64,000 nt of DNA from an uncultured bacterium (GTDB lineage: Bacteria; Patescibacteriota; Gracilibacteria; Absconditabacterales; Absconditicoccaceae), in NCBI GenBank assembly GCA_903904875.1, contig CAIVEC010000001.1, positions 10,147 to 74,146 on the forward strand, given 5' to 3'. The notes below the pieces were generated by a model. That model was not told the DNA's origin. It did no database searches and saw only the letters and a list, made by a program, of their open reading frames with translations. The translations under genes were made by a program, and so were the position numbers. Of the stretch, positions 1 through 64,000 are shown piece after piece; the first letter of the stretch is position 1, and the number at the start of each line of letters is the position of its first letter.

Positions 1-2
1 CG

Positions 3-287
3 CTTGAAGATTATGTAGGATTGGATATGGACGCCGTCTTGAATAAGATAACCCAAGAAATGTGAGAGTTTAATGATGCTGTACAGAAATACAGATGAAT
101 CTATTGCAGGGAGAAACATGAAACACCCGAAGAAGTGGAGAAAGAGGTTGGTGATTTGTTCTTCAACATCATTTCTTTATGTAATAGATTATGAATTGAT
201 CCTGATAGGTTACCAGAGTTCGCAGAAAATACCTTGCACAAAGCAGAAGGAAGAAAAGATATCTACAAAAAAATAATGGAAGAATAA
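3..287 (+). CDS. MazG-like NTP pyrophosphohydrolase, C-terminal fragment (5' end outside window)
   Basis: Read with TGA=Gly: ...EVEKEVGDLFFNIISLCNRLGIDPDRLPEFAENTLHKAEGRK..., a MazG-type helix pair. TAA at 285-287. 3 in-frame TGA. Confidence 0.55.
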
Positions 288-309
288 CTTTTATTCATTG
301 TGTATAGCC

Positions 310-1020
310 GTGAAGATTGCGTGAATACAACAGTCGACGATGATAGATTACCCAGGCAAGATCGCTTGCGTGGTCTTTACCCAGTGATGCAATTTCCGCT
401 GTAATTTTTGCCATAACCCTGAATGTGTCTTGCCGGAAAAAATGATGCTGTTCCAGAACGACTTGATCCCTGAAGACGCGTTCTTCAATTTCCTGAGAGC
501 GAGAAAATGACTTTTGGATTGAGTGAGTATCTGTTGATGAGAACCTACCTTACAACAAGACTTATACGACTTTGCCAAGAGGTGCAAAGAGATGTGATTC
601 TTCGTCAAGTTGGATACGAACGGGAGGGATTATCAACTCGTCAAAAGGATGATCCAGGATAAGATTCTTGATTATGTCGCGGTAGACTTGAAACACTCCA
701 TGCATTGTTACGGTGATGCGGTAGGACTTGAACAGCCCACAGAATTCTATCTGAGTTTCCAGAAATTATTGCAGATATTATTGGAAAGCAAAATAGATTA
801 CGAATATAGGACTACGGTCGCTAAGTGACTTCATACGCTTGATGATGTAGAGAATATGGCGGTCTATATCAGAGGTGCGAAGCACTATTATCTCCAGAAT
901 TATATCGGAGGGAATACGCTGGATCCTGATTTCTGATGAACGCCGTTCAGCGAAGAGGAATTGGAAGAATTCAAAAAAATAGCTGAACGTTATGTCCAGC
1001 ATTGCGAGATCAGAATGTAA
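310..1020 (+). CDS. nrdG: anaerobic ribonucleoside-triphosphate reductase activating protein (radical SAM)
   Basis: VKIAGIQQSTMIDYPGKIACVVFTQ(TGA=G)CNFRCNFCHNPE radical-SAM CxxxCxxC motif. GTG start at 310 (ATG alternative at 340), TAA at 1018-1020, 711 nt. Confidence 0.8.
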
Positions 1021-1098
1021 TTATTTTAGTCATCGCGAGCAAAGCGTGGCGATCCAGTATTAGATTGCTTCATTCTTCGCAATGACATCAATCAGTTA

Positions 1099-1875
1099 TT
1101 ATTTAAAGTGTTTCATACAGTCCTCGTATCCTTGAAGATATGCCTTGTGCATATTTTTTTTGCTGATATCCAAGACCTTGAGCGGAAGATCTTTATAGAA
1201 GAGATGTTTGACCGACGCCATGTTTTCTATGGTATGATGTCTGAGAAGAATCTCGAATGAAACCGATAAGGTATCGAAGATATTTTTTATTTTCTGATTC
1301 TCTTGGTATTTATTAAGCGCGATACCGATGATATCGTTTTTTGGATATCTCTTTTTCGCGATATCGACCGGGAAATTATTCGTCGCTCCTCCGTCCATCA
1401 GGACATGGTCCTGATAATGTACGACAGGGAATATTCCCGGGATGGAGACACTAGCAAGAAGGATAGGAGTCAGATCACCTTTGTCGAATAAAAGGAATTT
1501 TCATGTTTTGGTGTTGGTGGTTCAGATATAGGTCTTTATTTTGAGGTCGATGATTTTTTTTGGCAGATCCTTGATAAATTTCTTTTCGAAGTAATTGAGT
1601 TTTAGTAAGCTCTGTTTGGAAAAAATATTGATTGAAGAGAATCAAAACGCGTGATCGGCAATAAAGATATCGTAGATCTCTTGAGCGGAATATCCAGCTG
1701 ACCGGTAGCATCCTGCAATCGCTCACGCGCTTACTCCGTAGATGGCTTGGATTTTATCTTTATATCACAACTCCTCTAGTCACTTCAAAATCCCCAACGC
1801 ATAAAACCCTCTCGTTCCTCATCACGAAATTACGAGTGTGTATTTCTTTTTAGGAAGGAAGGAAAAAAGTTTCAT
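1099..1875 (-). CDS. patatin-like phospholipase
   Basis: MKLFSFLPKKKYTLVISGGGTRGFYALGILKGLEELG...GVSAGAIAG...DGGATNNFP. The GGGxRG oxyanion motif is partly encoded by TGA TGA (1819-1824). 777 nt. Confidence 0.85.
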
Positions 1876-1882
1876 AAACTTA

Positions 1883-2628: not shown

Positions 2629-3108
2629 TTATTGTATTATTTTTCTCATCTTATGAGAGTATGTCGTGAATCAAGATTTTTCATAGAATTTAATTGCTCA
2701 TTGATTGAAATCCCGGACATTCAATTCAATATCGGATATAGCATTTTCTTTTGCCCGATCTTCTACTTTCTGGAGTAATATCTTCCCTATTCATTTTTTT
2801 TTGTATGTTTCTTGTACAACGATCGTATCTATATCAACCCATATTCTTGGCTTCAAAACTGGAATATCACTTGCTTTTTTTATGAATGCGAGAGCACATC
2901 AGACAACACGTTCGCCATCCTTGGCCAGCAAAAGTTTTGAATCGGCGCTAGTTATTATACTCATATAATACTCTTTAGTAAATAATTCCGGTTCCGGTTG
3001 TTTGAATTTCCATGGTGCTTGAAGCCTATGGAATTCTTCCACTTCTTTGAATACCTCGACAAATCAGAGATAGTCTTCTTGGGTAGCAGGCACTAGTATT
3101 ATATTCAT
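2629..3108 (-). CDS. GNAT family N-acetyltransferase
   Basis: ...IVVQETYKKKGIGKILLQKVEDRAKENAISDIELNVRDFNQGAIKFYEKSGF, the GNAT acetyl-CoA motif (Q/RxxGxG). 480 nt, 4 TGA. Confidence 0.7.
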
Positions 3109-3116
3109 GGTATATA

Positions 3117-3674
3117 TTAAATATTAAATGTAGCAATCACTTTCTCTATCTGTTCATTGAGTTCTTCGAATGTTCAATTATTGATGAATATATGGTCAGC
3201 CATTTGGATACATTTAGCGACATTCTGTTTGGTAGGATCTTCGTTCTCCATTTCTCTTTGTTCGTCACTGATAAATTTTTCGTACGACACATGATCGCTT
3301 TCATTATTCCTCAATACAACTCTTTCATATCTGATCTTCGGATCTGCGTCGATTGCGAAGAAATGGAAATTCTCCTTGCCTTTGAGCGCTTCAACTTCAC
3401 CCACGGTCCTTAAGCTTTCGATGATAGCATTCTTTCCGCTGAGTTTCGCTTGTTCATAGAGTTGTTCAGCGATATAGGAAGATCAATATATTGCACGAAG
3501 GTCATTACCGACGATGACCATACTATCCCTATTCACCGGCATTCCTCTCTTCTCTATTTCTTGGATCAGATACGCTCTCACGGAAAAATGCTGGAATCAT
3601 TTCTTCTGGACAAGATAGTCCACGATGGTGCCTTTTCCTGCACCGAGTGTTCACGTGATTCAGACGATAATCAT
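3117..3674 (-). CDS. P-loop nucleotide/nucleoside kinase-like protein (dephospho-CoA kinase / dNMP kinase-like)
   Basis: MIIVGITGTLGAGKGT Walker A, with two of the Gly as TGA. 558 nt. Exact family not resolved. Confidence 0.6.
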
Positions 3675-3769
3675 GATAATATGATTAAGGGATAAATTTC
3701 ATTGAGTATAGTTATTTAGACAAGAATTGAAACAATTTTTTTTGAAGGTCGATTATAATATTTTTATAT

Positions 3770-3885
3770 ATTTTGTCCTCCTTTTGAAAAGGAGGGGTGG
3801 TGCGGAAGCACAGGAGGATTTAAGTCGTGGACACGAAATCCCTCATCCGCAAAATGCGGATACCTCTCCCTTTTATAAAGGGAGA
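3770..3885. repeat. cluster of short GC-rich REP-like hairpins
   Basis: cctccttttgaaaaggagg, atccgcaaaatgcggat, tctcccttttataaagggaga. Similar hairpins at 1020-1090, 18170-18290 and 42880-42935. Confidence 0.5.
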
Positions 3886-3986
3886 CAAATTTTGTAAGTC
3901 CAACGAAGTGTTTACTATTTATGTTTGAAAACAGCATTACACTTGTATATAGTTATAGCAATAATTTATCTTTTCACTTATGCACC

Positions 3987-5517: not shown

Positions 5518-8500
5518 TTAATTTAATTCGAACACGATAAGCTGACTTCCTCCGCCGAGACTTTGACCGAGGATATTGTTAACGAATTCCTGATATTGAG
5601 GATTATTCGCTTTGACAAGATTCACTAGTCCGAGATATTGTGTCAAAATCAAACGTTCATCCTGGGAAAGTCATTCAATGGTTTTAGTGAGTTCTTCTGA
5701 AGCTCATTGTTGTTCAAGTATTTTTGCCGCTATAGGGAAGAGTTTATTTTCATCAACCACCTTTCCATAGACATCAGCGATATCGCCTATCACTTGTCCA
5801 TCAGCTATCCTGTTTGTAAATGTCTCTCCGATGAAGTTAAGCAAGGTTTGTGAATCCGGGAAGAATCTTGCAACTGAAAGCTTAGCTCTGAGGAATACGA
5901 GATCATCAGCAGACATAGCTCCGAATTTTGCGATAAGCGTAGCGTCGTCCAAACTGAATGCATATTTCGCTCATAAATTATTTGTTGAGAATAAACTGAT
6001 ATATCACGCTTTCCGGAGTTTGACTAAATCGCTGATCGCTCCGTCCTCTTGGATCTTTCCGGTGACCGGATCTCTCTTGGCAAAGAATCTATTGAAGAGT
6101 GATTCATTTCCTTCTCACATTACCACGGTTCCGATATTCGGATCGATGACGAGATATTTGAGATTGCTGTCTACGAGTCTCTGGTAGGATTTACATAAAT
6201 TTCCATCGCTGTTCTGTTCTCGGAATCGGTCAAGCATTCCATCGCTTCTGATATTGTGTTGATTATCCAAGAAGTATTGCATATAGGTTCCTGCAATCAA
6301 AACCCCATCTTTGTTCGGCCTATTTTTTACGTAGTCAATGAATTTATTATAATGAGGGAATTGGAGATCGAAAACATCCTTTTGTCCGTATCCTGCTTTC
6401 ACTACTTCTTTCTGTTGAAGCGTGTCGGTGATCTCTGTGGTCTTTCCGTTATTCATCTTGTATCGAAGGAAAGGGCCTCATCCGCCTTGTGAAGAGATTC
6501 TTACAAAGTTGAGTACGAATTGCACTAATCCTCGGATAGCAAAAAGGAAGAGAATAATGTAGATCATAGTCTTATCTTTTTCATCCTTGGAATGTTCAAA
6601 CATATCCCTGAAAATCATAGCTACTGCGATGACGGTCCGTATGACAAGTCCCATTCCATACCGGAGGATACCTCATCCTATAATCCGCCAGATTGCTCGC
6701 CCTATAATGGTCACTCCTGAAAGCACGACGAGATTGGTATCTTGTCTGAAATGTTTTGCGTTGCACAATGCGTAAATGAATCCAAGTACTAACAATGCCA
6801 TGATCATCAACCATACAAATCCGATATCCGTATAATAACTGCTGAGATTCTGCAATGATCGATTGAAGACGATATTGAATGGTACGAGATATCTATAGGG
6901 TATATTGATTTTTCCTGCTTGAGTCTGAATTACATGATCTTGATAATATCCTCTCAGTGCGACTATCTGATCTCTGTATTCAGTGGGATTGATGACAGTT
7001 CCGCTTCCTTTGGCTGCATAGGCAGCAAGCGCTCAGCTCAAGAGATCATATGCTTTAGTCCCTGGCTGCACTTGTGTAAAGAGTTTCTGAAGTGTCGGAA
7101 CATTGAAGTTATCTATGGCTTGCGCATTTACACAGAGCAATTTCGCCGCTGCATTGACTCCATAACAGGTATTATTGTTTGGATAGAATATCCTCAGCAA
7201 TCCATAGCCGAGATTGAGCCCTCCACCCTTATCAATTTCCTTCCGGCCATATCCGATATATCTTCCCACATCCTCATTCGTAGTTACCGCTTTTTTGATA
7301 TTGGCATTCAATTCTTCTGTAGTGAAACTGGTTTGTTTACATTGTTCAGGAGATAGGACAGCGGTATTTACTACTGTCGTGTCTACTGCTGTTTGTAGGG
7401 CTAATGCCTTAGTATCCGTAGCAGCCAGTAATGGTTTTGATTGATCTTGTTTTCCCAGGAGAATGCTTTTTATGAAATTTCCTGGAGTAAGGGTATGATC
7501 ATTGATTCCTTTGATCAGCATATTCGGTCCTTTGAAGACAAGCAAGGTCACCGCTAATGTCACCGCCCAAATGCATATATATTTGAATAACCTTTTTTTA
7601 TCTGAAAGATTTCCTTGGGCTTTATTTTTGTTCATCATCATCCTTACCAATCCAAGAACGACTATAATCAATCCTATCACCACAATATATTTTCCTGCTG
7701 CAGGAGTCATCATATCAGGGGCATTGGCAATTTTGAGAATACCCGTCACTCCCACAGTCATGATACCTGCTCCGATAGCGACAATACTATCTATCCAGAG
7801 CCCTACAAGCAATAATCCGAATAATGCCATATCGATAAATGCTGTTGGTTTAGCCATACCTGCTCGAGCAAACATCACTCACGAGATGATGATATATTTG
7901 AGCGAATCTCGATGAAGCTTGAGTCCATGCTCGCGATTGTCCAGGATATATTTAAGGAAGATGAATCCAGAAAGGATCGCTAAGATCGTCAATGCCATCA
8001 CTCACAGATCACTCTTATTATCCACGAAAACCAAGAACGCTCACATTCAGCTCGTAAGCCGGAATAATAGCATCATCCATCCGCTATACATACCAAGTGT
8101 CGTAGTAATATCTTCTTCGTCTTTTTCCTCTTTTTTCGGAGAGAAATACGTCAATACTTCCTTGATGAGTCCTGTTCAGAAAATAAGGACGAATACTCAA
8201 CTAAGGAAGTTCATCGCAACAGCTATCGTATCCGGTGCTAGCCAAAATCGGCTTTTGATAGGTTGTATGAGTGCAAACCGGAATGTAACAAAAATATGCC
8301 GGAGATATGGCGCTGCTGCCGCTGGTCCTACATTACCTCGAAGCACTCCATGGCTTTGTGCAAGCACTCTCGGGATATACATATATTCATGATTAGCATC
8401 CCATGCGGTTGAATACGGAATAAATGATAATTGGAATCCATAGAGATAGTAGATAAGTGAAACCGCTAGGAGTATGATTCACAATCGTTTTCGCCGATTA

Positions 8501-9132
8501 GCTTTCAGTTTTTCTCCTCTAAATTCGTCGGCGATATCGCTGATGATGGTTTTGTAGGGAAGTATATCAGCTTTTGTACGCCGATAGATATATCCGATTC
8601 CCACAAAAAGAATCCGGATTACGATTCATCGTAATAAATGAATCATAGAGAAGATATATACGATCAATAAGAAAATTCAGAGTCACATTCAGAAATTGAT
8701 AAGCATCTCTTGCCATCTGGTCTCTTTGAACTTGATGTAGGTTTTGGATATCCATGTTCCGAATGCCATGATACCGAGAACAAAATACATTCCTAGGAAA
8801 TACAGTATCAAGGTATTGAGCATAAGGATGATGAATCATGCCGATCATCAGATTATGGTATCTTTGATCAGCGTGAACGCAGTGGTATACACCATCAACG
8901 TCAATGGGATGATATATATGAAGAATCTCTTTACGGAAAATACTTTTGATCTGATGATATATACGATAGGAATACACACCGCGATAATGCTCCGAATCAC
9001 TAATTTCCGATTATCCCAACTTGCCAGCATAGTCTGATAGTACGTATGGTTCGCCATGAATTCGTTGTAGATGGTCACTCCGAAAAAACTGAGGAGCAAG
9101 ATACCGATAATCAAAAAGATTTTTTGTTTCAT
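5518..9132 (-). CDS. giant polytopic membrane protein (1204 aa), family not recognised
   Basis: ORF-track fragments 5704, 6115, 6673, 7033, 8197 and 8848 share one frame. Codon-by-codon checks of 5518-5706 and 7876-8199 show only TGA between them. Many TM helices flank a hydrophilic stretch of about 280 aa. 3615 nt. Confidence 0.75.
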
Positions 9133-11002: not shown

Positions 11003-12298
11003 TTAGGCTTCAAGCCTGACAAGTTTAAACTGTTTCTTCCCTTTTCTGAGAAGAATCGTTCCGTTGATGAAATCCTCTTTTTTGACTGTATGTTGGATGT
11101 CGATGACTTTTGCTTCATTACAATATAAGGAACCAGAAGCGAGAAGTTTCTTCGCTTCGCCGTTGGATTCGGTAAGTCCAGCTTGCGTAAAGAGGTCTAT
11201 GAGTTTAAATTCTGTTCCTGAGATCTCACATCCGCCGGTCTCTTTCTGGAGTGCAGCTAAATCATTTTTGGTCATCGTCCTGATGGTCTGTAATTTATCG
11301 CCTTGGCCAAAAAGAATTTCGGTAATTTTCATGGCCTGATTAGCAGCATCTTCGCCGTAGACGGTAGTAACCAAATAATTAGCCAATTGTTTTTGTCCGT
11401 ATCTGAGTTCCGGGTTCTGCCTATGATTTTTGACGATGCCTGCTACCACGTCGAAATCGAGCAAAGTGAAAATCTTGAGATATTTTTCCACATCTTCATC
11501 TGTCGTATTCATAAAGTATTGATACGCGAAATACGGGCTGGTCTTATTCGGATCAAGAAAAATGGCGTTTCATTCAGATTTTCAGAATTTTTTTCCGGTT
11601 GAATCGTTTATCAAGGGAAACGTCATCACATATCCTTCCGCTTCGTTTCCAAGTTTTTTCCTGATCATTTCCGTACCGGTCACCATATTCCCCCGTTGGT
11701 CGGATCATCCTATCTGCAATTTTACCTTATGCTTTTCATATAAGGTAAGGAAATCGTATCCTTGCAGAAGCATATAGCTGAATTCGGTATAGGTGATGCC
11801 CATTTCCGGATCTTCTATCCTTTTTTTCACCGTCTCTTTGTTGAGCATATTATTGACGGTGATATATCTTCCTGCCGTTCTGAGAAATTCAAAAATGCTC
11901 ATGTTTTTGTAAAAGTCATAGTTATTGATCACTTCGAATTTGAAGTCGTATCCACTAAGTGATTTAAGATTTTCGAGGATTTGTTTTACTTGTTTGGTGA
12001 TTGCTTTTTCGTTGTCTCTCAGCATAGTTTCGTCGAGCATTGTCCTGTCACTAGTCTTTCCACTCGGATCTCAGATCATTCCTGTTGCTCCTCCGACGAT
12101 CATCACGAAGGTGTTGTTCCTTTTCATGAAATTCACTGCCGTCATGAAGCTGACAAAATTTCCGAGCTGGAGAGAATCCGACGTCGGATCGAATCCACAG
12201 TAAAATTTCTGTCCTCCTTTTTCGTAGAGATCAAAAAGCTTTTCATCAGTGAATTGATATACTAAACCACGGGTTTCCAATTCTTCACGCAAATGCAT
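11003..12298 (-). CDS. tyrS: tyrosine--tRNA ligase
   Basis: [15 protein letters not shown] (HIGH-type region), GGSDQ(CGG 11693-11695)GN = GGSDQWGN, KFGKSEG (KMSKS), C-terminal S4-like domain. 1296 nt. Confidence 0.95.
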
Positions 12299-12411: not shown

Positions 12412-14319
12412 TTACATACGTTCAAGAAATTTCATTCAGACCAGATTCATTCACTTTTGTAGTATTTCATGGACTTTTTTCAACAACATTATTCTCGCTA
12501 TCTTCGTTTGTTTTTCTGATTTGAGAATAATCACATTGGCGTAATAGCTGTTAAGCAATTTGGCGGTGTCTAATAAGTATCTACAGAGAAGATACGGAGC
12601 TAACTGGTCTTTTGCTTGCAGAAGCATGTCATTGAATTCAGCAAGTTTTTTTATGAGAGCGAATTCTTCCGGTTGGGTAAGTAATGAAGCAGTTGTAGTT
12701 TCATCCAAATTTTTTATAGCTCATGCATTGTCGATGATGCTTTGTACCCTTGCTCCCGCGTAAAGGATATATGCTCATGTTTCGCCTTGCATGTCTAATG
12801 CTTCGTCGATATCAAACACCAAGTCCTTGTCGATATCAGATCTCATGAGGAAGAATCTGAGCGATCCGATGGCAATGGTCTCTGCAACCTCATCCAGCCG
12901 GGTATCGTCTTTTTCCGGATTTCTTTCTTTGGATTCTCGATACGCTTTACCATGAAGCATAGTAAGCATTTCGTCCAAGGTGACGGTCCGTCATTTCCTG
13001 CTGGAAAACGGGAGTCTTTTTTCCGCCAGTTCTTCTGTGGTAAGTTTGTATCATAATTTAGTTAAGGTCTGTGGAGTAAGATAAACAACACCGTAGCCAA
13101 GCGGAAGATAATGTTTATGCTTCGCTGTATAATCTAATAAGGTGAATGTAGATTTTACAATCGTCTGTGCAGGGATTTGTCTGTTGTCGATAACGGTAAT
13201 TGCGGTGTCGTAATTTCAGAAATCATGCTTAGTCACTTTTGCATCTGGTTGTGAATTGGTGGTATACATAGTTTTACCTCTTGGATCTTCTTCGAAAATA
13301 TCGTAGCCGAAATCTTTGGAGATATAGCCAAGTTTCCAGAGTGCGAAAGCGATATCTTTTGCGATGTATGTAGCAACGCCATCGGACTTGATGAGAATCT
13401 GATATTGTTTTTCTTCTTTGGCGTATTCAGGCAGCGATGAGAGATCAAGCACTCGACATCATTTTGCTTCGCCGTCATCAACGAATTTTACGAATCATTT
13501 CTCTCTGAGCAGATCTATCGCTTCAGCGAAAAATTTGAGATGTAAGACATCCGTCTCTCGTGCGATTGCATCGAAAAACGCGTTCATCCTCCAGCACGTT
13601 CTGATCTGATCTAGCGCGCATCTTCTGGTATAGTTGAAATGAAGCTGGTTGAGATTTTCGTCTTTCCCTTCTTCTATTTTGAATAAGGTCTCTGAGAGTA
13701 TTTTTTTGAATCCTGGATCTTCGTCCTGTTTCCTCATCTCTTCGTAAATATTTCCGCAATAATGATCAAATTTTTTGTCCGTATCTAATGGATAGTCATA
13801 GAATAAATGTCCTACTATATTATAACCGACATTGACGCCGCTATCATCACCGTAGTTGAATGCGTGAACGGTATATCATAGCTCTTCATAAATCCTTCTC
13901 ATACTATCCCCTATACAGACATTTCTTGCCTGACCGATATGGAGGGGTTTATTCGGGTTGGCGTTCATATATTCTATCATCACCCTCGTCTTCGACGATC
14001 CTTTAATTCAGAATTCAGAATTCAAAATTCAGAATTCAAAAAAATCATTGATAAATGTTTTTTTGTCGATGTGTGCGTTGAGATATCCGCTGAGATGTTC
14101 GAACGAAGAAAAATAATCAGATTGTAATTTTTTTGTCAATTCTTCAGCAATCTGCTGAGGAGATTTTTTGAGGAGTTTAGAAAGTCTGAAACACGGAAAA
14201 GCAAAATCTCCCGGAATGTTTTCCGGCGGAATCTCTATCAATGCTAAAATCTCCGCCAATGGCAGATCGATATGTTTAGCTAATAATTCTGCAAAATGCT
14301 GTGTATAGAGAGTAAGCAT
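12412..14319 (-). CDS. argS: arginine--tRNA ligase
   Basis: EYMNANPNKPLHIGQARN (HIGH-type region), anticodon-binding domain, ends ...FLERM as ArgRS typically does. All five ORF-track fragments are in one frame. 1908 nt. Confidence 0.9.
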
Positions 14320-14334
14320 ATATGATGATAAATG

Positions 14335-14760
14335 CTAAAGTTCTAATTTTGGTTTCTGTCTAAATTGTTTGATCTTGCTAACAAGTTTTTTTTCTATGAT
14401 GCGCGTTTCGCGCTGTTTCTTTGGTATCTTGGTAGGGATTCTTTTTTTCGGTTCCGGAAGTATTTGTATCAATAGTTGTTTGAAATGATGGATCACTTTC
14501 TCTTTGTTCGCCACCTGCAGACGCTCTTCCTGACACGTCATAATAAGGATGCCTTCTTCGTGATGAACCATATGTCCGGCTAAATCTATGAGCCTTTGTT
14601 TTTGGGCAGGAGTGAGATAATCGGAATCGTGGATATTGAAATAGAGTTCCGCCTTGGTTTCTTTCTTGTTCACCTTCTGGCCGCCATGCCCTTTGCTTTT
14701 GGAGAAATGGAAATGGACCTCTTTCTGTAAAATAGCATTTATGATATCTTGATTATTCAT
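14335..14760 (-). CDS. arfB: alternative ribosome-rescue factor ArfB (GGQ peptidyl-tRNA hydrolase)
   Basis: 141 aa, SKSKGHGGQKVNKKET GGQ motif plus basic C-terminal tail. No TGA. Confidence 0.8.
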   Translation of the reverse strand: MNNQDIINAILQKEVHFHFSKSKGHGGQKVNKKETKAELYFNIHDSDYLTPAQKQRLIDLAGHMVHHEEGILIMTCQEERLQVANKEKVIHHFKQLLIQILPEPKKRIPTKIPKKQRETRIIEKKLVSKIKQFRQKPKLEL

Positions 14761-14900
14761 AATGTTTTGTGCTAAGTGTTAAATGTTAAGTGCTAAATGC
14801 TAAGTGTAGGAATATGTACCATTATCGACTATTGTAATTTACAATAGTTCATTAAAAGATAAATCTTTCACTTAAAACTTAAAACTTAGAATTTAAAATG
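14761..14900. repeat. intergenic hairpin element copy 2
   Basis: Arms gctaagtgttaaatgttaagtgctaaatgctaagtg / cacttaaaacttaaaacttag are complementary. Core atgtaccattatcgactattgtaatttacaatagttcattaaaag has a perfect inner hairpin ctattgta-attt-tacaatag. Confidence 0.75.
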
Positions 14901-14906
14901 GTTTTT

Positions 14907-15122
14907 TTATTGTTTCTTGTGTCTTTCTATTCTGCCTGTTTCATATCTATCGAGTTCCTGAGAGATCTGGTTTTTGGCTAGCGTTTCTCATTTTTTACCG
15001 GATTTTTTTGCACCGCTCACTGCACGTGAAAGATCTTCGACACCTAACCAAAGCGTGTTTCCTATCGTATCTGCTAAATTCGTTTTGCGTTTTTCTTCGA
15101 ATTTTTTGAGATCGGTAGTCAT
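14907..15122 (-). CDS. small hypothetical protein (71 aa)
   Basis: MTTDLKKFEEKRKTNLADTIG...; ATG to TAA, 216 nt, one TGA. No family recognised. Confidence 0.35.
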
Positions 15123-15261
15123 GCGTAATAATAGGGATAAAAACAAGAATATCTAAACTCTAAGGTATGAAAAATGATCAGAAAATCAATGATATTTTTA
15201 GTTGATATTTTTGGTTCCATTTGTATAATAAACACATAATTTTACCCTATTAGCCAATTAC

Positions 15262-16458
15262 ATGGCAAAAACAAAAAATATACTCGCTCGATGAATCATC
15301 GGTATCATTACAATGATTGGATTTACGCTCTGAGCTAAAGTCACTTTCCAACCATTATACTCTGACGTAAGATTCCAACCTTCTGACAAACTCCACGCCG
15401 GGTGCACTAATTCTGCCGACATTTTGTTTTCTCCGCAGGGACAGAAAGTGAGCAAATTTACGCTGGTACTCTATTATAATCCGCAAGATGTGGAAATCCT
15501 TCGTATCTTGCCAAGCACGACGAATGGTATAGCAAGCTCAAAAATCGAGTATGATAAAATCATCCTTGAAGTGCAGAATCCTACATTTGCTTCGTCAACG
15601 GAAACAAAATCGTTTTTTCAACTCTATTTCAAAAGTAATATCATAGGCAAAGAGATATTAACGTTAGGAACAGGTTCTGAAGTCGTTACGGCAAACAAAA
15701 CCTCTCCGCTTGCAGGAACATTTAATCTAACGTTTGAACAGGTGCCGGAATGTGAACCTGATATCGTCCCCCCAAGCATTAATTTAATTTATCCAAAAAA
15801 TACCGACGATAGGATTACCTTGGATCAATATTTTATCTTTGACATCAAGGATATCGGCAAATGAGTGGACAAAAATAGCGTCATCATAAACTTTGATGGA
15901 GACCAGTATTTCTATGGATCGGATAATCTCAAACGAAATGGAAATTATCTGACGTTCTACCCAGATAAATGGATTCCTATCGATACATCTATGGACCTCA
16001 AAATCCTTGTTGCTGACCAACAATCCTATGGATGAGCAAACAAGACGGAGAGCATGTATACCTTCCAAAGCGCTACAGGGATGATGCTCAATAAACAAAT
16101 TACGCCGATGATATTCAGAAGAATGGCGCAGGAAGCAGAGAAAATATCTGCATCAGTAGATGAATGCGGACTTCTATGAGACTTATACAACAAAGCACAA
16201 TTCAGCTATCAAGTGGATCTGAGATCTATCATGCAGAAACTTGGATGTGATGTAAATACCATAGATGCAACCTTGACTGCTCCTAAGGAAGATAAGGTGC
16301 CTGCAATGAATGCTAGCCAACAACAATACAGAAATATCTCTGTCTTTGCTACGCTTGGATGGATACTCTTCTTCATCGCATTTACCTTAAAAATACATTA
16401 TCTTCTTGCATATAGGAAACACAAAAAAATTAATGAAAAATTAAGAATTAAGAATTAA
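15262..16458 (+). CDS. membrane-anchored surface protein, cohesin-like plus Ig-like (Big_5/SbsA-type) domains
   Basis: Checked codon by codon. N-terminal TM, FTLVLYYNPQDVEILRI cohesin-like region, DIVPPSINLIYP...GKGVDKNSVIINFDG Ig-like motif, C-terminal TM. The last codons lie in the arm of element copy 3. Confidence 0.7.
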
Positions 16459-18726: not shown

Positions 18727-18748
18727 TCACTATATGATTTCTATAAAA

Positions 18749-18784
18749 GACACGCGACAACCTTTGGTGAGCGTGTTTTTTTTA
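18749..18784 (+). terminator. intrinsic terminator
   Basis: gacacgc...gcgtgt hairpin followed by a run of 9 T. Confidence 0.7.
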
Positions 18785-18965
18785 TTTTCGCTTGAAAACA
18801 CGGTGAATACTAATAGTCTGAAATAGACTGCAGGGCCCGTACGTAAGGGGAGGAATATTACTTCCTATCTATCTCATGGGAGCCACAAAGTTGAGTCTCG
18901 TATTCAACGGAGCTACCCACTTCTAAGTCTTTAGGAGAACTACTCGCCTTCTACGACCATGTGGT

Positions 18966-52768: not shown

Positions 52769-53413
52769 CTAATCGATTTTTCTTGCGACAAAACCCATCC
52801 ATGTTTTATTATACGGATCGGCAAAGATTCTTTTATTGATGATTTCAAATCCATGATTCTCGAGTGTCTCCTGAAGTTCTTGTTCAGTCCGATGTTTTCT
52901 GAATCTAATCATTCTTTTATTATAATCATGTTTCGTCTCTAGCCCTTCCCTGGACACCTCCGCTTTTGTAGTGCTCAAGAAGATAAGACCATTTGGTTTC
53001 AATATCTTTTTCACTTTTTTGAATACTTCCTGAATCTTGTCTTTGGGGAAGAGATGGATGAATGCACTCATATACACCGAATCAAATGTCTCTTGGAATT
53101 CATGCTGCAAAAAATCCGCCTCAATGATATCTGACATAGGGTTTCTTGTTTTCGCATACGTTGTCATTTCATGAGAAAGCTCAACACCAGTACACAAAAA
53201 CCCCTTATCATTGAAACACTTAACGGCTATCCCGACAGCGCAACCTATGTCCAAAACACTGTTTCCAGGCTGTAAGTATGTTGCGCAAATCTCTATAGCT
53301 TCTACCGTCATCGGGATTAAACTTCCGACACGAGACTCATACTCATCAGCAAGCGTATCATATGCTTGTTTGTGAATACTATCATCAGATTTATGTTTGA
53401 GGTTTCTTTTCAT
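52769..53413 (-). CDS. class I SAM-dependent methyltransferase
   Basis: VLDIGCAVGI motif I. 214 codons with no TGA. Confidence 0.8.
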   Translation of the reverse strand: MKRNLKHKSDDSIHKQAYDTLADEYESRVGSLIPMTVEAIEICATYLQPGNSVLDIGCAVGIAVKCFNDKGFLCTGVELSHEMTTYAKTRNPMSDIIEADFLQHEFQETFDSVYMSAFIHLFPKDKIQEVFKKVKKILKPNGLIFLSTTKAEVSREGLETKHDYNKRMIRFRKHRTEQELQETLENHGFEIINKRIFADPYNKTWMGFVARKID

Positions 53414-54582: not shown

Positions 54583-54589
54583 GAAACAC

Positions 54590-54716
54590 AATGAATAATG
54601 AAAGATGAAAAATGAATAATGTCGGATTTTATCGTGTATAAACTATTGTAGTTTACAATAGCTGATAAAAAACAATACAATCATTATTCATTATTAATTA
54701 TTAATTTTTCATTAAA
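54590..54716. repeat. intergenic hairpin element copy 7 (core reversed)
   Basis: Arms aatgaataatgaaagatgaaaaatgaataatg / cattattcattattaattattaat. Core tcggattttatcgtgtataaactattgtagtttacaatagctgat. Confidence 0.75.
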
Positions 54717-54787: not shown

Positions 54788-56200
54788 ATGTTTCAAAATA
54801 AAAAATCTAAAATAAAAAAAGATATGATACAAACCAAAACATTTATTCGCGCTACGGGAAAGTATATTCCTGAGCGTGTCGTGCCAAACTCGGATTTTGA
54901 AGATCCAGAGAAATATGAATTCTTCATATCCAATGACAAAAAAGAAGAACGCTCCAATCTTGAAATTGCCGACAAACTTGCAGAAATCACGGGTATCAAA
55001 GAACGACGATATTTTGATGAGCATACGACAACTTCAGATGCAGGCTATCGTGCCGCAAAAAACGCTTATGATGCTTCCAGAGATGATCCACAAAAAACCG
55101 ATGTCTTCATTTTCGCTCATAATTTCGGTGACATCCGTTATGAAGAGGATAAGTTTGATTGTGTGCCCTGCCATGCAGCAAGAATCAAGAATAATCTCGG
55201 TGTAGAAAACCCTTATACGGTTGCTTATGATATCGCTATCAGCGGTGCTTGTTTGATAAGGGATCTCACGAAACTAAAGGAGTATCTTGCTTTGGGGCCT
55301 AATGATCTTGTCGTAGAAACTGAGAATTATGAGCTCACTGGTATCTATGAAAAAGCTCAGCGTGCTTTTTCTCTTCTTGACGTGCAAAAGGAAAGCTTAC
55401 ATCGGATTATTGTGATTCATATTATTTATGAAAAATTATGTCTTGCAGCCAAAGTAAAAAGAAGGCTGGAAACAGCTAATCCCGATGCGCTTGCTTTTGA
55501 TGTGCTTTTCGGCTGTCCTGGGTGGCTCCATAGTGTAAGCATTGCTGACGCATTCATCACCTCAGAGAAAGCAAAAAAAATCATGGTTATCGGTGCTGAA
55601 GCATTATCACGAGTATCTGATTATTCAGATCCGGATAGCCAGATCTATTCTGATGGAGGAGGCGCCATCTATCTTGAGGGACGAAAAGTAGACGTTTCTG
55701 AGACCCTGGATGATAGTTTTTTCATCTTTGCATCTGTGGGTGCCGGTATGAATCGTAATGTCATGGTGTACTCCAAAAAGTATGGCATCTTAGGTTATCT
55801 TGTATGTTCAGATACCACATCGAAGTATCTCAATCTGCTCTGGATGGATAGATCGTATAATTCTAAGATCGCTGGCTTATATCTCAAAATAAAGGGATCA
55901 ACTGTCTTTGGATATGCAAAAGGGAAAGTTCCTGAGCTTATCAAACAGCTGATGGACAAGCTTGGAATAAACATCAATCAAGTAATCCGCATGTATCTTC
56001 ACCAGGCTAATGAGACATTGGATATAGCAATGACAAAGGGCGTCTTCGAACTTTGTTGTGGCAGAAAAGACTATTCCACTGATCCTCCTACCCCTAGCTA
56101 CATCATTCCTGATGGGCTCGTTCCTATGACCATTCAAAAGTATGGCAATAATTCCGTTGCTACACTACCTATACTGTTGGATGAGTTTGGATTGCAGTAA
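54788..56200 (+). CDS. FabH-like beta-ketoacyl synthase III family protein with ~90-aa internal insertion
   Basis: ITGIKE(CGA CGA)YFDE, AFDVLFGCPGW active-site Cys, IGAEALS(CGA)VSD, HQAN, GNNSVATLP. 470 codons with no TGA. True start may be ATG 54824. Confidence 0.8.
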   Translation: MFQNKKSKIKKDMIQTKTFIRATGKYIPERVVPNSDFEDPEKYEFFISNDKKEERSNLEIADKLAEITGIKERRYFDEHTTTSDAGYRAAKNAYDASRDDPQKTDVFIFAHNFGDIRYEEDKFDCVPCHAARIKNNLGVENPYTVAYDIAISGACLIRDLTKLKEYLALGPNDLVVETENYELTGIYEKAQRAFSLLDVQKESLHRIIVIHIIYEKLCLAAKVKRRLETANPDALAFDVLFGCPGWLHSVSIADAFITSEKAKKIMVIGAEALSRVSDYSDPDSQIYSDGGGAIYLEGRKVDVSETLDDSFFIFASVGAGMNRNVMVYSKKYGILGYLVCSDTTSKYLNLLWMDRSYNSKIAGLYLKIKGSTVFGYAKGKVPELIKQLMDKLGININQVIRMYLHQANETLDIAMTKGVFELCCGRKDYSTDPPTPSYIIPDGLVPMTIQKYGNNSVATLPILLDEFGLQ

Positions 56201-56217: not shown

Positions 56218-56248
56218 TACTCCGGTTATTTACCGGAGTTTTTTTTCT
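56218..56248 (+). terminator. intrinsic terminator after the FabH-like gene
   Basis: tactccggt-tattt-accggagt followed by 8 T. Confidence 0.7.

Positions 56249-56950: not shown

Positions 56951-56956
<6 letters not shown>
56901..56956. repeat. 56-bp direct repeat, copy 2 (dnaK stop plus terminator)
   Basis: Same sequence as 56251-56306, exactly 650 bp away. Confidence 0.85.
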
Positions 56957-58846
<1,890 letters not shown>

Positions 58847-59735: not shown

Positions 59736-60629
59736 TTAAAAAAAATGGAGACTGAAATACAGCCTCCATCATGTTTTAATGCCTTTATCTTTCCGCACAT
59801 ACAAGGTCGGTCGCCAAGGATAGCGCAGAAAGATCGAACCGAAGCTGATAGCTTTCGCACCGAGTTTCCTCACTTTCTCGATGTCGTCAAACTCCCATAC
59901 GCTTGGGCCGATCACGGGAATCGAAGTCGATGTGACAAGCTTCTCGATCAGGCTCCAGGTGAATGGCTGTGCCGCTTTGCCGGAAACACCGCCTCCTCCA
60001 AAGTTTGCCAGAGGGCTTTTTTTATTTGGAAAAGCTATCGCCCATGAGACACTGTTGATTGAAATAGCTTCGACAAGATTTTCGACTTCCTTCACGATTT
60101 GTTCTATGTCGTGGCTGACTGATAGTTTCAGAATCAACGGCAGACGGGAATTCTCCTTAACCGCTTTACAGCTTGCTATCACTCTTGCTGTATTATGAAG
60201 AATATCGGTTTTGGTATTCGGACAAGAAGCGTCTATTTCTAGTCCTACTAAATCAAATCTATCCAGCATCCTAGGCATTTCCGCCAGTTCTTCCGGTTCG
60301 CCGAAAATTGAAACAACCAAGGGAATTTTGTTTGAATCAACTGACGGGCCGATTTTTTCGCACCACCAGGCAATGCCGGGATTTGATAAACCGACTGCAT
60401 TCACTACTCCGCCATGGAGCAATCGTATGCATCGTAAAGGATTGTACCAACGAAGATTTCCTTCCGTTGGTTGAAGTGTGAGTGTTTTGGTGACTGAGGT
60501 GAAAAGTGTCGGGTCAAAAATTTTTAACCACTGCCAAGGACGTTCCCATGGCCAACCTTTTCCGTCGAAACCCAAAGCACCGCTTGCGGTCATATATTCA
60601 AAGGCATGACCATTAGAAAATTTTATCAT
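59736..60629 (-). CDS. dihydroorotate dehydrogenase-like (PyrD family) flavoenzyme
   Basis: GNLRWYNPL(CGA)..., VNAVGLSNPG, DASCPN, LKLS, FGGGGVSG. 286 codons with no internal TGA. The standard-code stop is TGA at 59769; under code 25 the frame runs 11 more codons to TAA at 59736. Confidence 0.75.
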
Positions 60630-60689: not shown

Positions 60690-60800
60690 TCGGAAGGTTT
60701 GAAGAGTTTTTCCTCACCCCCTTTCTCCCCCTCTCCTTCAGAGAGGGGTATGATTACTGCTCCTTCTCTGAAGGAGAAGGTTGGGATGAGGAAAGTTACT
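60690..60800. repeat. REP-like imperfect palindrome, second copy
   Basis: cctcaccccctttctccccctctccttcagagagg...ctctgaaggagaaggttgggatgagg. See 22096-22200. Confidence 0.7.
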
Positions 60801-60880
60801 CAATACCTTGTAAACCAGCTTTGAAAAAATATAAAACAACCAATTCTGAATTCTGCATTTTACATTCTGCATTCAAAAAA

Positions 60881-62083
60881 ATGTCCGTCTATTCATTCTC
60901 GCAGACGCAGTGTTTCGTGCAATGTCCGCGCAAGTACCAGTATAAATATGTCGACAAGATCCAGGAAAAGGAATTTGAATCGAGTCCGGATCTGATTCTC
61001 GGACATAGCGTCCACGCAGCATTGGAACGGCTGTATAATCAGATAAATGTTTTTAAAGTCCCTGCCAAGGATGAGCTTTTGGCGAAGTTCAAGGACCAAC
61101 GGGATACTGAATTGAAAGAGGCGACCATCGAGAAACCATTGGAGATGAAATGAGAACAGACGCTTGAGGACTACATCCGCAGAGGCATCCATTATGTGGC
61201 GAACTATTATGACAAGTATAGTCCCTTTGAAAATATCACCGTCGTCGCTACGGAAGCGTCGATAGTTTTTGATCTGAATGACCAGGTAAAATTCCGTGGA
61301 TTCATCGATAGATTGGATAAAGAAGGAGAAACGTTCATCATCAATGATTATAAGACGAACAAGAATCTTCCGCCGGAGAGCAAGGAAGAATACATCGATC
61401 AGCTCACCTTGTATGGTCTAGGAGTGCAGCAGAATTATGCGAAATATTTTAAAACAATCAAAGCCAGACTCCACTATCTTCATTTTGACCTGATGGACGA
61501 ATGGGAGATCACTCCTGAGCTTTTGGCTACAGTCACGAAAAAATATGTGGATACAATCACCGATATTGAAGCAAAAAAATTCGCGTACAATATGGGAGAT
61601 AAAAAATGTTTCGATCCGAAACAGAATAATTTTTGTAAATATTGTGAATACTATTCGCTCTGCCCTTTGTGGGCGCATCTGAAATTCGACGACGAAGTCA
61701 TAGGAAGCGAATTAGGAGAGAAGACCGTGAAAGGATTGGTGGATGAATATGTCGCGTTGTCCAAGCAAGAATCACAGGCCAAGAACGATAGGGAGTTGAT
61801 CAAAATCTTGTTGGTCGAATATCTCGAGAAAAAGAACCTATTGAAATTGTTTTGAAACGTGTATAAAATATCAGCTTCACAAGCTGAAAATATCAGTATT
61901 GCCGATAAAGAAGCGCTAAAGAAAGTCTTGCAGGAATTGGGAATTTTGAATGAAGTGATGGAAGTCGATAGGTTTAAGTTACAGAAATTAGTCAAAGATA
62001 AAAAATTGTCGCTAGAACAACTTGGTGTGACTGTTCAAAAAAATAGTAGTCGGACACTCAGAGCTGGCGCAAAAAAGGAATAA
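60881..62083 (+). CDS. PD-(D/E)XK nuclease with Cas4/AddB-type Fe-S cysteines
   Basis: N-terminal QCPRKY Cys, FIDRLD...INDYKT catalytic motif, C-terminal CKYCEYYSLCP. Three ORF-track pieces joined by 2 TGA. 1203 nt. Confidence 0.75.
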
Positions 62084-62561
62084 AAAAAACGCACCTAATA
62101 CAGGTGCGATTATATAACATGGTAAGAAAAACTCATATACCGATAGCTTGGCATAAATTTTCACAGATTTTTTTTTGGGTGTCTGCTTCAGATATGTGGG
62201 TAAATATTTGACTGAGTGGATGTACAATTCCTACGGTATCATTATACGTGCTTGTATACTGGTATTTTTGATTTTCATGTATCGATAAAGCACTTGCAAT
62301 GTTGTCAAATTCTTTTTTACCGAAAGCTCTGAAACTTTCCGGATTGAAATCCATGCAGCGGTGTGCAAAAATCTTTATAGCCCTTTTGATGACGGCTATC
62401 TTTCCGTCTCTTTTAAATCTTTTTATTCCATTTATAACATAACGGATTTCTTTTTTTTGTCTCTGTATGGCATAGTGATCACATATACAAACGTACATTA
62501 TAATCGAGCCAATTATACCCCCAAAAATAAGGCATAGTACATAGTAAATTACGTGTGTCAT
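62013..62561 (-). CDS. hypothetical membrane protein; 142-aa ORF ends at TGA 62133-62135 and reads on to TAG 62013 under code 25
   Basis: N-terminal TM VIYYVLCLIFGGIIGSIIMYV. No internal TGA. Hairpin cgcacct/aggtgcg (62090-62108) with a T-run in minus orientation lies just after the TGA. Confidence 0.5.
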
Positions 62562-62692
62562 AGTTTTTTTTCTCCTTTTCGTTTTGGATTAATATATTTG
62601 TTTTAAAACTTATATACATATTTAATTTAAAAAGTCAATCAAAAAAACCTGAGACTCAAAGCGAACTCAGGTTAGAAAATATATCAATTATT

Positions 62693-63277
62693 TTAGTATT
62701 TCTCAGACTTCACAACATAATAATTTGATTCGTGATCGCATGACGGGCATTTTTCCGGTGGAGTTTTCCCTTTGTGGACGTATCCGCATTTGGTGCACAT
62801 CCGCTCGATGTCTTCGGATTTTTTCGCTAAGGTGCCTGCAGCCAATTGGTCGCGTAATGCTTGGTATCTCGCTTCGTGATGCTCTTCCGCGTGGGAAATT
62901 GCTCTGATTCTGGCAGCGATTTCCGGGAATCATTCCTCTTCGGCGATCTTGGCGAATTCAGGATACAACACTTCGTGTTCGTGATTCTCTCCGTTGATGG
63001 CGTATTGGAGATTGTCCAAGGTCGTTCATTTCTTGACGAAAGCTGGGGTTTCTATTACCACTTCGTCCATATCCTCTCCCATCTTCTCTTTGACCATCTG
63101 GATCATTTTGAAAAATCGTGATGCGTGCTCTTTTTCCTGTTCAGCGGTCAGTTCAAAGATATCGGCTATCTGCAATAATCATTCTTTTCTGGCTGCGCTG
63201 GCATAGATAGCATAACGATTCCTCGCTTGTGACTCGCCGATAAAGGCTTTGGTAAGGGCTTCTAGGGTCTTTTTCAT
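62693..63277 (-). CDS. rubrerythrin
   Basis: FIGESQARNRY, EQEKEHA, INGENHEHEVLYP, AEEHHE, and a rubredoxin end (CGG 62801-62803)MCTKCGY...CPSC where the family has W.C..CGY. 585 nt. Confidence 0.9.
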
Positions 63278-63310
63278 GATGTAGAATTTTAAAAGATAAA
63301 GATATGCTGA

Positions 63311-64000
63311 TTATTCTAAAAATTGCAACTCTTGGTACCACGATTTTCCTCATAATCCCCGAAGGACATCCTGCCCTCCATCGATGAAATAGAACTTGTT
63401 TTTATTCTCATTACCGACGAACATCATCACTGATCAACCGATAGCATACGGACCACAGAACGTTGAAGGATAACATAATCGGTCTGCAGGACATCATGAC
63501 AGAATCTTGTCCTGAGGATAATCGATGAAAAACGCTTTATATCCTGAGGCATACATGCTATCGTCAAATGATAATTTAACTGCTGGTTCTATCGTACAAT
63601 CTCCGCTATTCTCTATATTCGCCACTCTTTTGATAGCTTGTTCCAAGGTTTCGTTAGGCAATTTTTCGAACATCTGGACCGATTCTCACCTGGTCATTAT
63701 GGATACTTTATCTCCTGATCTCACCATCGTATAAAACTCATTATTCACAAGCGCGTTTCCATATACATATACGGAAAACGTAATGCCGAGATCCGGTGAA
63801 GTATATGTTTTGAAATATCAAGTCTGTTCTCCGGTCATCTCAGTACATTGTGTCGGAGTTGTGCAATTTGTAGAGGAATATATGAATCAGGTAGGTCATA
63901 CCACTTGCAGAGTATCTTGAGCTCAAACTACATCTCCTGAAGAAATGATGTCTGCCACGGATGGAGATATAGGTTTAGATGATCCGCATCATCAGAGAAT
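63311..64000 (-). CDS. hypothetical protein, C-terminal 229 aa (5' end outside window)
   Basis: Open minus frame from the window edge to TAA at 63311, with 9 TGA. Cys-rich, probably secreted. Confidence 0.5.

Follow-up and report, generated by a model that had tools for sequence, protein, structure and literature searches.

Why should a bacterium that reads TGA as glycine keep long genes in which no glycine is spelled TGA? The question is raised by a stretch of 64,000 nucleotides (hereafter the window) from an uncultured bacterium of the Absconditicoccaceae (Patescibacteriota; Gracilibacteria; Absconditabacterales; assembly GCA_903904875.1, contig CAIVEC010000001.1, positions 10,147 to 74,146 of the forward strand), in which a preliminary description had noticed TGA-free genes among TGA-rich ones. 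The reading that we favor, with a probability of about 55%, is that these genes form a standard-code class within a recoded genome, composed of imports, with the resident families among them held in their spelling by purifying selection.

The window (38.7% G+C) is almost fully coding only when TGA is read through, and the coverage by open reading frames (ORFs) collapses when TGA is counted as a stop. A total of 51 genes, called from ORFs delimited by TAA and TAG together with a codon-usage score and annotated by Pfam, include TyrRS, ArgRS, LeuRS, DnaK, FtsK, a sigma-70-family factor, EF-P and SecD, as well as several Gly-rich surface proteins of the YadA-head and collagen-like types. The lineage is confirmed by homologues that bear the NCBI names SR1 or Absconditabacterales. 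The conserved-Gly motifs of DnaK, TyrRS, FtsK and LeuRS carry in-frame TGA, and because the codon is found where Gly is invariant in DnaK and TyrRS (DLGxGTFD, VxGATRMP, GxSDQ and KFxKSExN), the premise that TGA means Gly holds. Two genes of the recoded type, which we call native, are used as controls:

30121–32688, + strand: LeuRS; 19/62 Gly codons are TGA.
56951–58846, − strand: DnaK; 8/44 Gly codons are TGA, at invariant Gly positions.

LeuRS has 19 CGA/CGG codons (CGR), of which about 14 coincide with Trp in the T. thermophilus enzyme and none with Arg. The Trp of the TyrRS motif GGSDQ-W-GN is likewise spelled CGG, and the native genes together spell Trp by CGA/CGG 161 times versus 86 times by TGG. 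This native code (TGA = Gly, CGA/CGG = Trp) matches the one published for Absconditabacteria, where TGA is Gly (code 25) and CGA/CGG are Trp (Shulgina & Eddy 2021, PMC8629427, which cites Campbell et al. 2013 for the code of this group). The frequencies of CGA, CGG and TGG are also alike, at 50, 44 and 67 per 10,000 codons in the window and 30, 24 and 35 in the 'advanced' genome of PMC8629427. That study inferred a single code per genome and does not contain the word 'horizontal', whereas a subset of genes in the window uses CGA/CGG as Arg and has no TGA. Among the few native CGR codons that align to no aromatic residue is one in the KMSKS region of LeuRS, after KMSK (KMSKR-CGR-KN), where T. 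thermophilus has Lys.

TGA accounts for 442 of the 1525 Gly codons in the window genes (0.29), and its share differs so strongly from gene to gene (χ2 = 147.4, df 49, P = 8.8e-12) that the unevenness first described is borne out. The genes at issue, with their flanking signals and the binomial probability of finding no TGA, are the following:

22372–23916, + strand: paralogue of the type IX secretion system (T9SS)-tail gene at 43099–44640; 0/35 Gly codons TGA (P = 6e-6), 9 TGG, 1 CGR; A-rich leader; terminator at about 23935–23969.
33633–35090, − strand: PurC-PurE fusion (phosphoribosylaminoimidazole-succinocarboxamide (SAICAR) synthetase and aminoimidazole ribonucleotide (AIR) carboxylase); 0/21 TGA (P = 8e-4), 10 TGG; A-rich leader; terminator at about 33581–33614.
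35312–36100, − strand: 262-aa secreted-protein gene that belongs to the same class; ends CAT TGA TAA (35312–35320).
43024–43098, + strand: promoter-like TTGACT-16-TATACT (43024–43051), then the A-rich leader, about 47 nt, of the next gene.
43099–44640, + strand: T9SS-tail secreted protein, 513 aa, with Ig/FN3-like repeats; 0/36 TGA (P = 4.5e-6), 15 TGG, 1 CGR.
44644–44680, + strand: intrinsic terminator of that gene, an 11-bp stem followed by a T run.
52769–53413, − strand: S-adenosylmethionine (SAM) methyltransferase, between RlmN and RlmL; 0/10 TGA (P = 0.03, not significant alone).
54788–56200, + strand: long FabH-like (ketoacyl-ACP synthase III, KAS III) gene, with its true start probably at 54824; 0/29 TGA (P = 5e-5); A-rich leader; terminator at about 56220–56246.
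59736–60629, − strand: dihydroorotate dehydrogenase (DHOD)-like gene of the PyrD family; no in-frame TGA up to a stop TGA at 59771–59769; AGGAGG 5 nt before the ATG.

The six whole genes singled out at the outset thus have no in-frame TGA, with the reservations that 52769–53413 is weak on its own and that 59769–60629 (0/22 Gly codons) does contain one TGA, the codon that ends its standard-code ORF; the hand count of about 38 Gly for 22372–23916 is corrected to 35. Five genes with at least ten Gly codons lack TGA entirely, against 0.19 expected (simulation, P = 1e-5). The range of 30–55% TGA quoted for TGA-rich genes fits the P-loop kinase (38%) and the 7879–8199 part of the giant membrane gene (about 50%); pduL is lower (25%, 5/20). 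The remaining genes are still overdispersed (χ2 = 82, df 43, P = 3e-4), and the Gly-rich YadA/collagen-like proteins are the highest in TGA (44–46%). Counts for the Gly-rich surface genes are 41/94 (23994–25703), 23/50 (25848–26651) and 54/151 (39872–42754), at a G+C content of third codon positions (GC3) of 0.19–0.25, and in other SR1 loci the Gly-rich gene that adjoins a T9SS-tail gene is likewise TGA-rich and low in GC3.

Do the TGA-free genes form a class of their own, or the tail of a continuum? In a set of 149 genes from 13 SR1 loci, each with 15 or more Gly codons, the TGA fraction is bimodal and not the smooth single-peaked distribution that would have spoken for a continuum: 24 genes stand at exactly 0, three lie between 0 and 0.10, and the others center on 0.33 (standard deviation 0.14). 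A beta-binomial fit to the non-zero genes predicts 0.7 zeros against the 24 seen; most of the 13 loci were fetched for containing a TGA-free gene, which inflates the 24 zeros but not the gap between 0 and 0.1. The TGA triplet as such is not avoided, in that TGA-free genes have 0, 24.6 and 44.7 TGA per 1000 codons in frames 0, 1 and 2, and native genes 27, 26 and 29.

Two further candidates were dropped. One lies within a native-type gene:

5518–9132, − strand: giant membrane gene; 22/101 Gly codons TGA, 26 CGR versus 10 TGG.

Its TGA-free run at 7033–7878 (281 codons) holds 25 Gly codons, and not about 30 as counted by hand; the run is marginal (permutation P = 0.018, uncorrected), the Trp and Arg codon use inside it is the same as elsewhere in the gene, and we treat it as chance or a domain effect, not as a foreign insert. 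The other, an ArfB-like gene (14335–14760), has just five Gly codons and a native-type repeat leader.

The distinction extends to all three reassigned codons. TGG and CGR number 37 and 10 in the five TGA-free genes that begin at 22372, 33633, 43099, 52769 and 54788 taken together, and 11 and 4 in the DHOD-like gene. Their CGR codons are found at Arg positions, namely the RR motif of SAICAR synthetase (one of the two CGA codons of PurC-PurE is on an invariant Arg), the conserved ERR motif and other Arg columns of the FabH-like protein, and, for all four in the DHOD-like gene, Arg of its relatives. With orthologues from other SR1 genomes included, alignment columns with CGR in 17 native families are CGR-only (75) or also contain TGG (25), and none also contains another Arg codon; in three TGA-free families, two such columns are CGR-only, none also has TGG and 17 also have Arg (Fisher P = 4e-12). 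The rule CGA/CGG = Trp therefore describes the native genes only. Where PurC-PurE (PurCE) columns show no variation among 20 standard-code relatives, the orthologues in SR1 have CGR at 8/42 Arg positions (34/140 in the relatives, hence no depletion), TGG at 42/42 Trp positions and TGA at 0/84 Gly positions (78 GGN, 6 Ala). From these TGA, Trp and Arg patterns we conclude that, for each of the three codons, the TGA-free genes follow standard-code spelling. A foreign codon usage at amino acids other than Gly, Arg and Trp was looked for and not found, the z scores being within the native range.

Could the pattern be an artefact, such as a chimera, contamination, wrong frames, sampling noise or a local mutational regime? 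The methyltransferase gene (0/10) and the segment of the giant gene could each be due to chance. For the class as a whole, chance is ruled out by the binomial, chi-square and simulation tests, with per-gene P values that reach 1e-5 to 1e-7, and each gene has family-level homology in its called frame. A chimeric assembly is excluded by the junctions between TGA-free and TGA-rich genes, which recur in at least five independent assemblies, the same gene order being found in several metagenome-assembled genomes at NCBI as well. Local mutation bias or avoidance of the TGA motif, the former among the explanations first proposed, fails on two counts: TGA occurs out of frame at normal or raised frequency, and GC3 tracks that of the host genome. 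We regard an artefactual or chance origin as highly improbable. That the TGA-free genes are a discrete class derived from standard-code bacteria, and not the tail of a continuum, is well supported, as is their origin by transfer; import is probably the ultimate origin of all of them.

The class also has a gene architecture of its own. The 30 nt before the start codon are 61% A in TGA-free genes (n = 23) versus 33% in native genes (n = 115; 12 SR1 loci, Mann–Whitney P = 2e-10); many TGA-free genes have a TTGACT-16/17-TATAAT-like site about 45–50 nt upstream, and nearly all have a strong hairpin terminator directly 3'. As self-contained single-gene units they resemble the morons of prophages. 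The promoter type cannot be used as a foreign-gene marker, because the native gene at 19906–20901 also carries TTGACA-17-TATAAT. No known RNA element was found in the A-rich leaders, the only Rfam match being a tRNA.

Which of these genes are recent arrivals? The DHOD-like gene is clearly a recent import from a standard-code donor. Its nearest relatives (73–80% identity) are on standard-code-looking Patescibacteria contigs, whose GyrA, FtsH, RuvB and DnaE genes lack in-frame TGA; it has a perfect AGGAGG, whereas none of 44 native genes has a Shine-Dalgarno match; and it is missing from the corresponding site, between DnaK and PDDEXK, in the SR1 locus L104 (comparison loci are given by L numbers). 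Under code 25 its stop TGA is read through, adding ten codons across its own terminator hairpin to the TAA at 59738–59736. This is the only gene that combines nearest relatives in another lineage with donor-type signals and with absence from the matching site of a related locus. In two loci with a DHOD-like gene, L100 and L101 (contigs Ga0315293_10164034 and Ga0315288_10205544), the ORF is intact except that codon 32, a conserved Trp position, is an in-frame TGA, which could reflect a lineage with TGA = Trp or a fresh nonsense mutation. Loci from GC-rich proteobacteria, in which the TAA/TAG-only gene caller gives spurious in-frame TGA, were ignored.

The methyltransferase is plausibly an import too, RlmN and RlmL being adjacent, with nothing like it between them, in L011 and L104. 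The same is plausible for the 262-aa gene, the tail of which has a standard stop TGA followed by a backup TAA. Its one internal TGA (codon 107) is CGA in the sister species L092 (C>T), where the copy has 0/16 TGA, and its ratio of nonsynonymous to synonymous divergence (dN/dS) of 0.38, at a synonymous divergence (dS) of only 0.09, suggests relaxed constraint; it is apparently a decaying member of the class. In the related SR1 genomes L003 and L007, the PRPP (phosphoribosyl pyrophosphate) synthase gene is TGA-free with an A-rich leader in the former (17881–18843, 0/23) and native-type in the latter (14180–15682, 16/29), where it is longer and on the opposite strand relative to the L003 gene, which suggests that the L003 gene is a xenologue beside or replacing the native one.

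Three families tell a different story of residence: T9SS-tail, PurCE and FabH-like. At the DNA level 8, 7 and 3 genes were inspected, respectively, and none of their 515 Gly codons is TGA in any SR1 genome examined, while neighboring genes have 20–36%.

The T9SS-tail proteins of the window are 35% identical over their full length, are 513–514 aa long and each have a signal peptide. The sorting tail of 43099–44640 scores 52.4 bits against PF18962 (Por_Secre_tail, cut-off 27) and 41.7 against TIGR04183 (cut-off 23), and that of 22372–23916 scores above the cut-off for TIGR04183 (26.1) and below it for Pfam (22.6). A structure model of the former (pLDDT, the predicted confidence score, 88) is a predicted chain of Ig/FN3-like domains, with best fold matches to parts of the grappling-hook protein GhpA from Aureispira, a predatory member of the Bacteroidota. 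The family has many full-length homologues; the window pair and six genes on five other SR1 contigs, representing six SR1 genomes, have 0/251 TGA (neighbors 27–35%). One site is conserved in three genomes, in the order infB, Gly-rich gene, T9SS-tail gene and tig, where the neighbors are 82–98% identical in protein sequence (64–70% for the Gly-rich gene) and the T9SS-tail gene 50–80%. There the identity at four-fold sites is 0.45, and TGA is mixed with GGN in 61/225 conserved Gly columns of the neighbors but 0/17 of the T9SS-tail gene.

The FabH-like family (0/107 TGA in three genes; 0/41 in L104 and 0/37 in L105) has a common locus order in the window, L104 and L105 (RlmN-RlmL-FabH...DnaK...PDDEXK). 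The GC3 of gene and host are 0.25/0.26, 0.28/0.28 and 0.36/0.40. Since GC3 likewise follows each host genome for T9SS-tail genes, the synonymous sites of both families have re-equilibrated. Neither atypical composition nor a history separate from the neighbors is found for these two families, and PurCE is mixed, with a dS like its neighbors in the sister-species pair and atypical values in L011–L013.

The PurC-PurE protein of the window is of the Patescibacteria type with an SR1-specific insert. Its best PDB hits hinted at a eukaryotic, PAICS-like origin, which we rejected because the fusion is common in Patescibacteria. Seven genes (the window and six SR1 contigs) have 0/157 TGA; the next relatives are at most 48% identical, and an exact-sequence look-up of the window gene gave no match. 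A contig labeled 'Gracilibacteria' (L076) was set aside as uninformative, its PurCE being in a standard-code context. The genomic context differs among genomes, and GC3 is host-like in three of them and high in three others (L011–L013), so that repeated transfer is likely for this family.

The sister species L092 has 92–98% protein identity to the window. The T9SS-tail gene (dS 0.33, dN/dS 0.14) and PurC-PurE (dS 0.25, dN/dS 0.18), the proteins of which are under purifying selection, have diverged about as far as most native genes (dS 0.27–0.33). Yet conserved Gly columns that mix TGA and GGN number 0/68 in TGA-free genes versus 36/332 in native genes, or 36/240 when TGA/TGA columns are omitted (P ~1e-4 by a hand approximation). 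Similarly, 11/83 native Trp columns have changed between TGG and CGR, and none of 29 TGG-encoded columns in TGA-free genes has. The four columns with CGR in both copies of TGA-free genes are presumably Arg positions, and one PurC-PurE column exchanges CGR for another Arg codon, the count of CGR at invariant Arg being 1 versus 2 in the two species.

These data bear on a simpler account in which all TGA-free genes came recently from standard-code donors and have yet to drift toward the codon use of the host, with no selection involved. The DHOD-like gene fits it exactly, and it is favored by the insertion of the methyltransferase relative to L011 and L104, by the two spellings of PRPP synthase, by the moron-like units, and by PurCE, with its GC3-rich copies, varied contexts and position beside tRNA-Ser in three genomes. 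As a general explanation we consider it unlikely. T9SS-tail and FabH-like genes kept their synteny across genomes near synonymous saturation and re-equilibrated their GC3 to hosts that differ by 0.12–0.14; T9SS-tail and PurCE genes have the dS of their neighbors against L092 and no mixed Gly columns; and no close standard-code homologues were found, the next relatives of FabH being about 40% identical over 55% of the length. Too short a residence cannot account for the T9SS-tail and FabH-like families or the L092 result. From the absence of TGA in all SR1 genomes examined, the synteny and GC3 of T9SS-tail and FabH-like genes, and the neighbor-like dS with dN/dS of 0.14–0.18 of T9SS-tail and PurCE genes, we infer that active selection keeps the three families in standard spelling. 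Imports, among the explanations proposed at first, thus account for the DHOD-like gene and plausibly for the methyltransferase and the 262-aa gene, but not fully for the resident families.

The favored reading, a standard-code class with selection on its residents, would have two layers. Fresh or decaying imports (the DHOD-like gene, probably the methyltransferase, and the 262-aa gene) would have had too little time to change, and in the long-resident T9SS-tail, FabH-like and PurC-PurE genes purifying selection would hold the standard spelling. Changes such as GGA>TGA and TGG>CGG, common and apparently neutral in the neighbors, would be purged from the resident families, and CGR would exchange freely with other Arg codons; the genes would therefore evolve as if their reader took TGA for a stop and CGR for Arg. 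As a working reason, the cassettes may be tied to standard-code cells by continued exchange or by products made under standard decoding. Exchange with such cells is direct for the DHOD-like gene and likely for PurCE. The idea of selection for code-independent translation survives in this modified form for the three families, although the genes are not code-neutral, CGA/CGG being Arg in PurCE and FabH-like.

Several points weigh against this reading. Most comparison loci were found through TGA-free genes, which is an ascertainment bias, and standard-code close homologues could sit among the hits beyond the 8, 7 and 3 family members inspected at the DNA level. The varied contexts and GC3-rich copies of PurCE are more easily reconciled with repeated transfer than with long residence. 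Should the cell read CGR as Trp, invariant Arg positions of PurCE and FabH-like proteins would be occupied by Trp, and then either Trp is tolerated there, or decoding differs, or the genes are less functional than their dN/dS suggests. Finally, the columns that mix CGR with other Arg codons could in part reflect slow repair of imported CGR instead of neutral exchange.

Could translational selection do the same, with TGA-free genes so highly expressed that they avoid scarce or error-prone tRNAs for the new codons? Some native proteins that are presumably abundant are low in TGA (S1 1/33, ClpB 3/47, EF-P 2/16, TyrRS 4/36), A-rich leaders could be strong initiation sites, and a surface adhesin could be abundant. 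DnaK, however, retains 17–20% TGA in the window and two other SR1 genomes, and PurCE and FabH-like proteins are unlikely to exceed it in abundance. The TGA-free genes also lack the high GC3 (about 0.44–0.53) of DnaK, EF-P and rubrerythrin, and CGR at Arg positions is left unexplained. This makes translational selection a very unlikely cause.

A further alternative is that the resident families are translated by a standard-code system, be it a host or prey cell, a phage-switched cell, or the symbiont with its special tRNAs off. All three codons behave in the standard way, including the neutral-looking exchange of CGR with other Arg codons at invariant Arg and one such change between the sister species, and the leaders are A-rich and without Shine-Dalgarno sequences, unlike native leaders. 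Some products have a T9SS sorting tail, and we know of no report of T9SS in Absconditabacteria. No T9SS component was found in the window or the fetched loci, and the literature search yielded no paper that links Absconditabacteria with T9SS. Other products are enzymes of the PurC, Prs and FabH types, and relatives of PurC are common on viral contigs; Absconditabacteria phages without in-frame TGA have been described (PMC10746230). Against this stand the lack of a known transfer mechanism and the scattering of the genes as single units instead of one transferable block. The promoters are ordinary TTGACT/TATAAT ones, seen in at least one native gene and, to our knowledge, not of the Bacteroidota type. 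For T9SS-tail and FabH-like proteins no relatives were found on IMG/VR contigs, by scans for a few peptide patterns, which are weak evidence, and for T9SS also by a family alignment; for PurCE the scan returned ordinary PurC only, at about 32% identity. No candidate tRNA, synthetase or release factor that could act as a decoding switch was seen. Translation by a standard-code system is, on this balance, rather unlikely. Equally doubtful is its fullest form, a regulon kept in standard code and conserved across Absconditabacterales (T9SS-tail adhesin-likes, PurC-PurE, FabH-like and PRPP-synthase-type enzymes) and decoded by such a system. Possible settings are effectors made in the host or prey, akin to auxiliary metabolic genes of phages, a phage-imposed state, or a code switch of the symbiont. 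If true, two genetic codes would be in use side by side within a single cellular genome.

How does this compare with known systems? Imported genes start at the codon usage of the donor and drift toward that of the host (amelioration). In accordance with that model, the GC3 and general codon use of T9SS-tail and FabH-like genes are host-adjusted; unlike it, the reassigned codons have not adjusted, though G>T in GGA and T>C in TGG should create them. In Streptomyces, the rare codon TTA marks a regulated minority of genes that depends on one tRNA, bldA. Here too the presence or absence of a codon defines a gene set, but the minority is the one without the codons, and the use of CGR as Arg has no counterpart. 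In stop-recoded phages, recoded codons are confined to late genes, which ties expression to the decoding state (as related in PMC10746230 with its refs 21 and 23). Like them, the genome studied here has two gene sets that differ in reassigned-codon content. Such a phage carries suppressor tRNAs, lives in a standard-code host and has its late genes behind recoded stops, whereas here the cellular genome is recoded, a minority of genes is not, and no switch machinery was identified. Closest, along with the stop-recoded phages, are the phages of Absconditabacteria/Gracilibacteria that are compatible with code 11, with no in-frame TGA and with TGA stops that have a backup stop nearby (PMC10746230), and for which the authors regard TGA avoidance as advantageous and not just a sign of recency. 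Both are elements linked to code-25 hosts without in-frame TGA, and the 262-aa gene of the window ends TGA TAA. In the phages whole genomes are of this kind, whereas here they are single chromosomal genes, some of them syntenic, with no viral-contig relatives found for T9SS-tail and FabH-like. The question of CGA/CGG was not taken up in PMC10746230.

A change of code is usually taken to concern the whole genome and to act as a barrier against gene exchange; in the window this barrier can be seen at the level of single genes. The preliminary description concerned TGA, and what is added is the tie to CGA/CGG reassignment, the distinct leaders and the conservation across genomes. The searchable literature yielded no account of a split like this at the level of genes. 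With three codons to go by at once, foreign genes can be sharply recognized in code-25 genomes. Families that stay unassimilated after their other synonymous sites have adjusted point to a cost of the reassigned codons, a link to standard-code cells or a second decoding state, and each option matters for understanding the spread of codon reassignment within a genome and the dealings of these uncultured episymbionts with hosts and phages. In practice, translating SR1 genomes with a single code mistranslates the TGA-free genes, with Trp where Arg is encoded, and predictors that assign one code per genome pool two signals.

Some observations concern the surroundings of PurC-PurE. The only tRNA gene of the window adjoins it:

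33458–33544, + strand: tRNA-Ser(GGA).

In three SR1 genomes (the window, L092 at 11547–11633 and L012 at 8241–8327) this tRNA gene directly adjoins TGA-free genes, and it may be an integration site for TGA-free cassettes. The PurC-PurE orthologues have a common upstream hairpin with compensatory changes (CACCAG...CTGGTG versus ACCAA...TTGGT) and a TTTTTTATAT loop, at about 35136–35180 (− strand) in the window, 9915–9960 in L011 and 7690–7730 in L013, which may be a regulatory element or a promoter region. Further TGA-free genes with A-rich leaders lie near PurC-PurE at 2804–3892 and 7059–8144 in L012, 15951–16871 in L013 and 5013–6158 in L106; two of the extra L012/L013 genes lack any Pfam match, and the third matches radical-SAM weakly. 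The class thus extends beyond the families studied here.

The native genes, none of which (0/44) has a Shine-Dalgarno match, have T-rich 5' regions, often with short tandem repeats (TTCATTTT..., TTAGCA..., AAGCTTT... and CTGCATT...), and a palindrome, ACTATTGTAnnnTACAATAGT, recurs at about −60 to −85. Examples of such leaders are at 28899–28990, 14761–14850, 54583–54672, 1876–1965, 17968–18060 and 60790–60880; the T-rich repeat leader and the palindrome may together be a native promoter or operator architecture.

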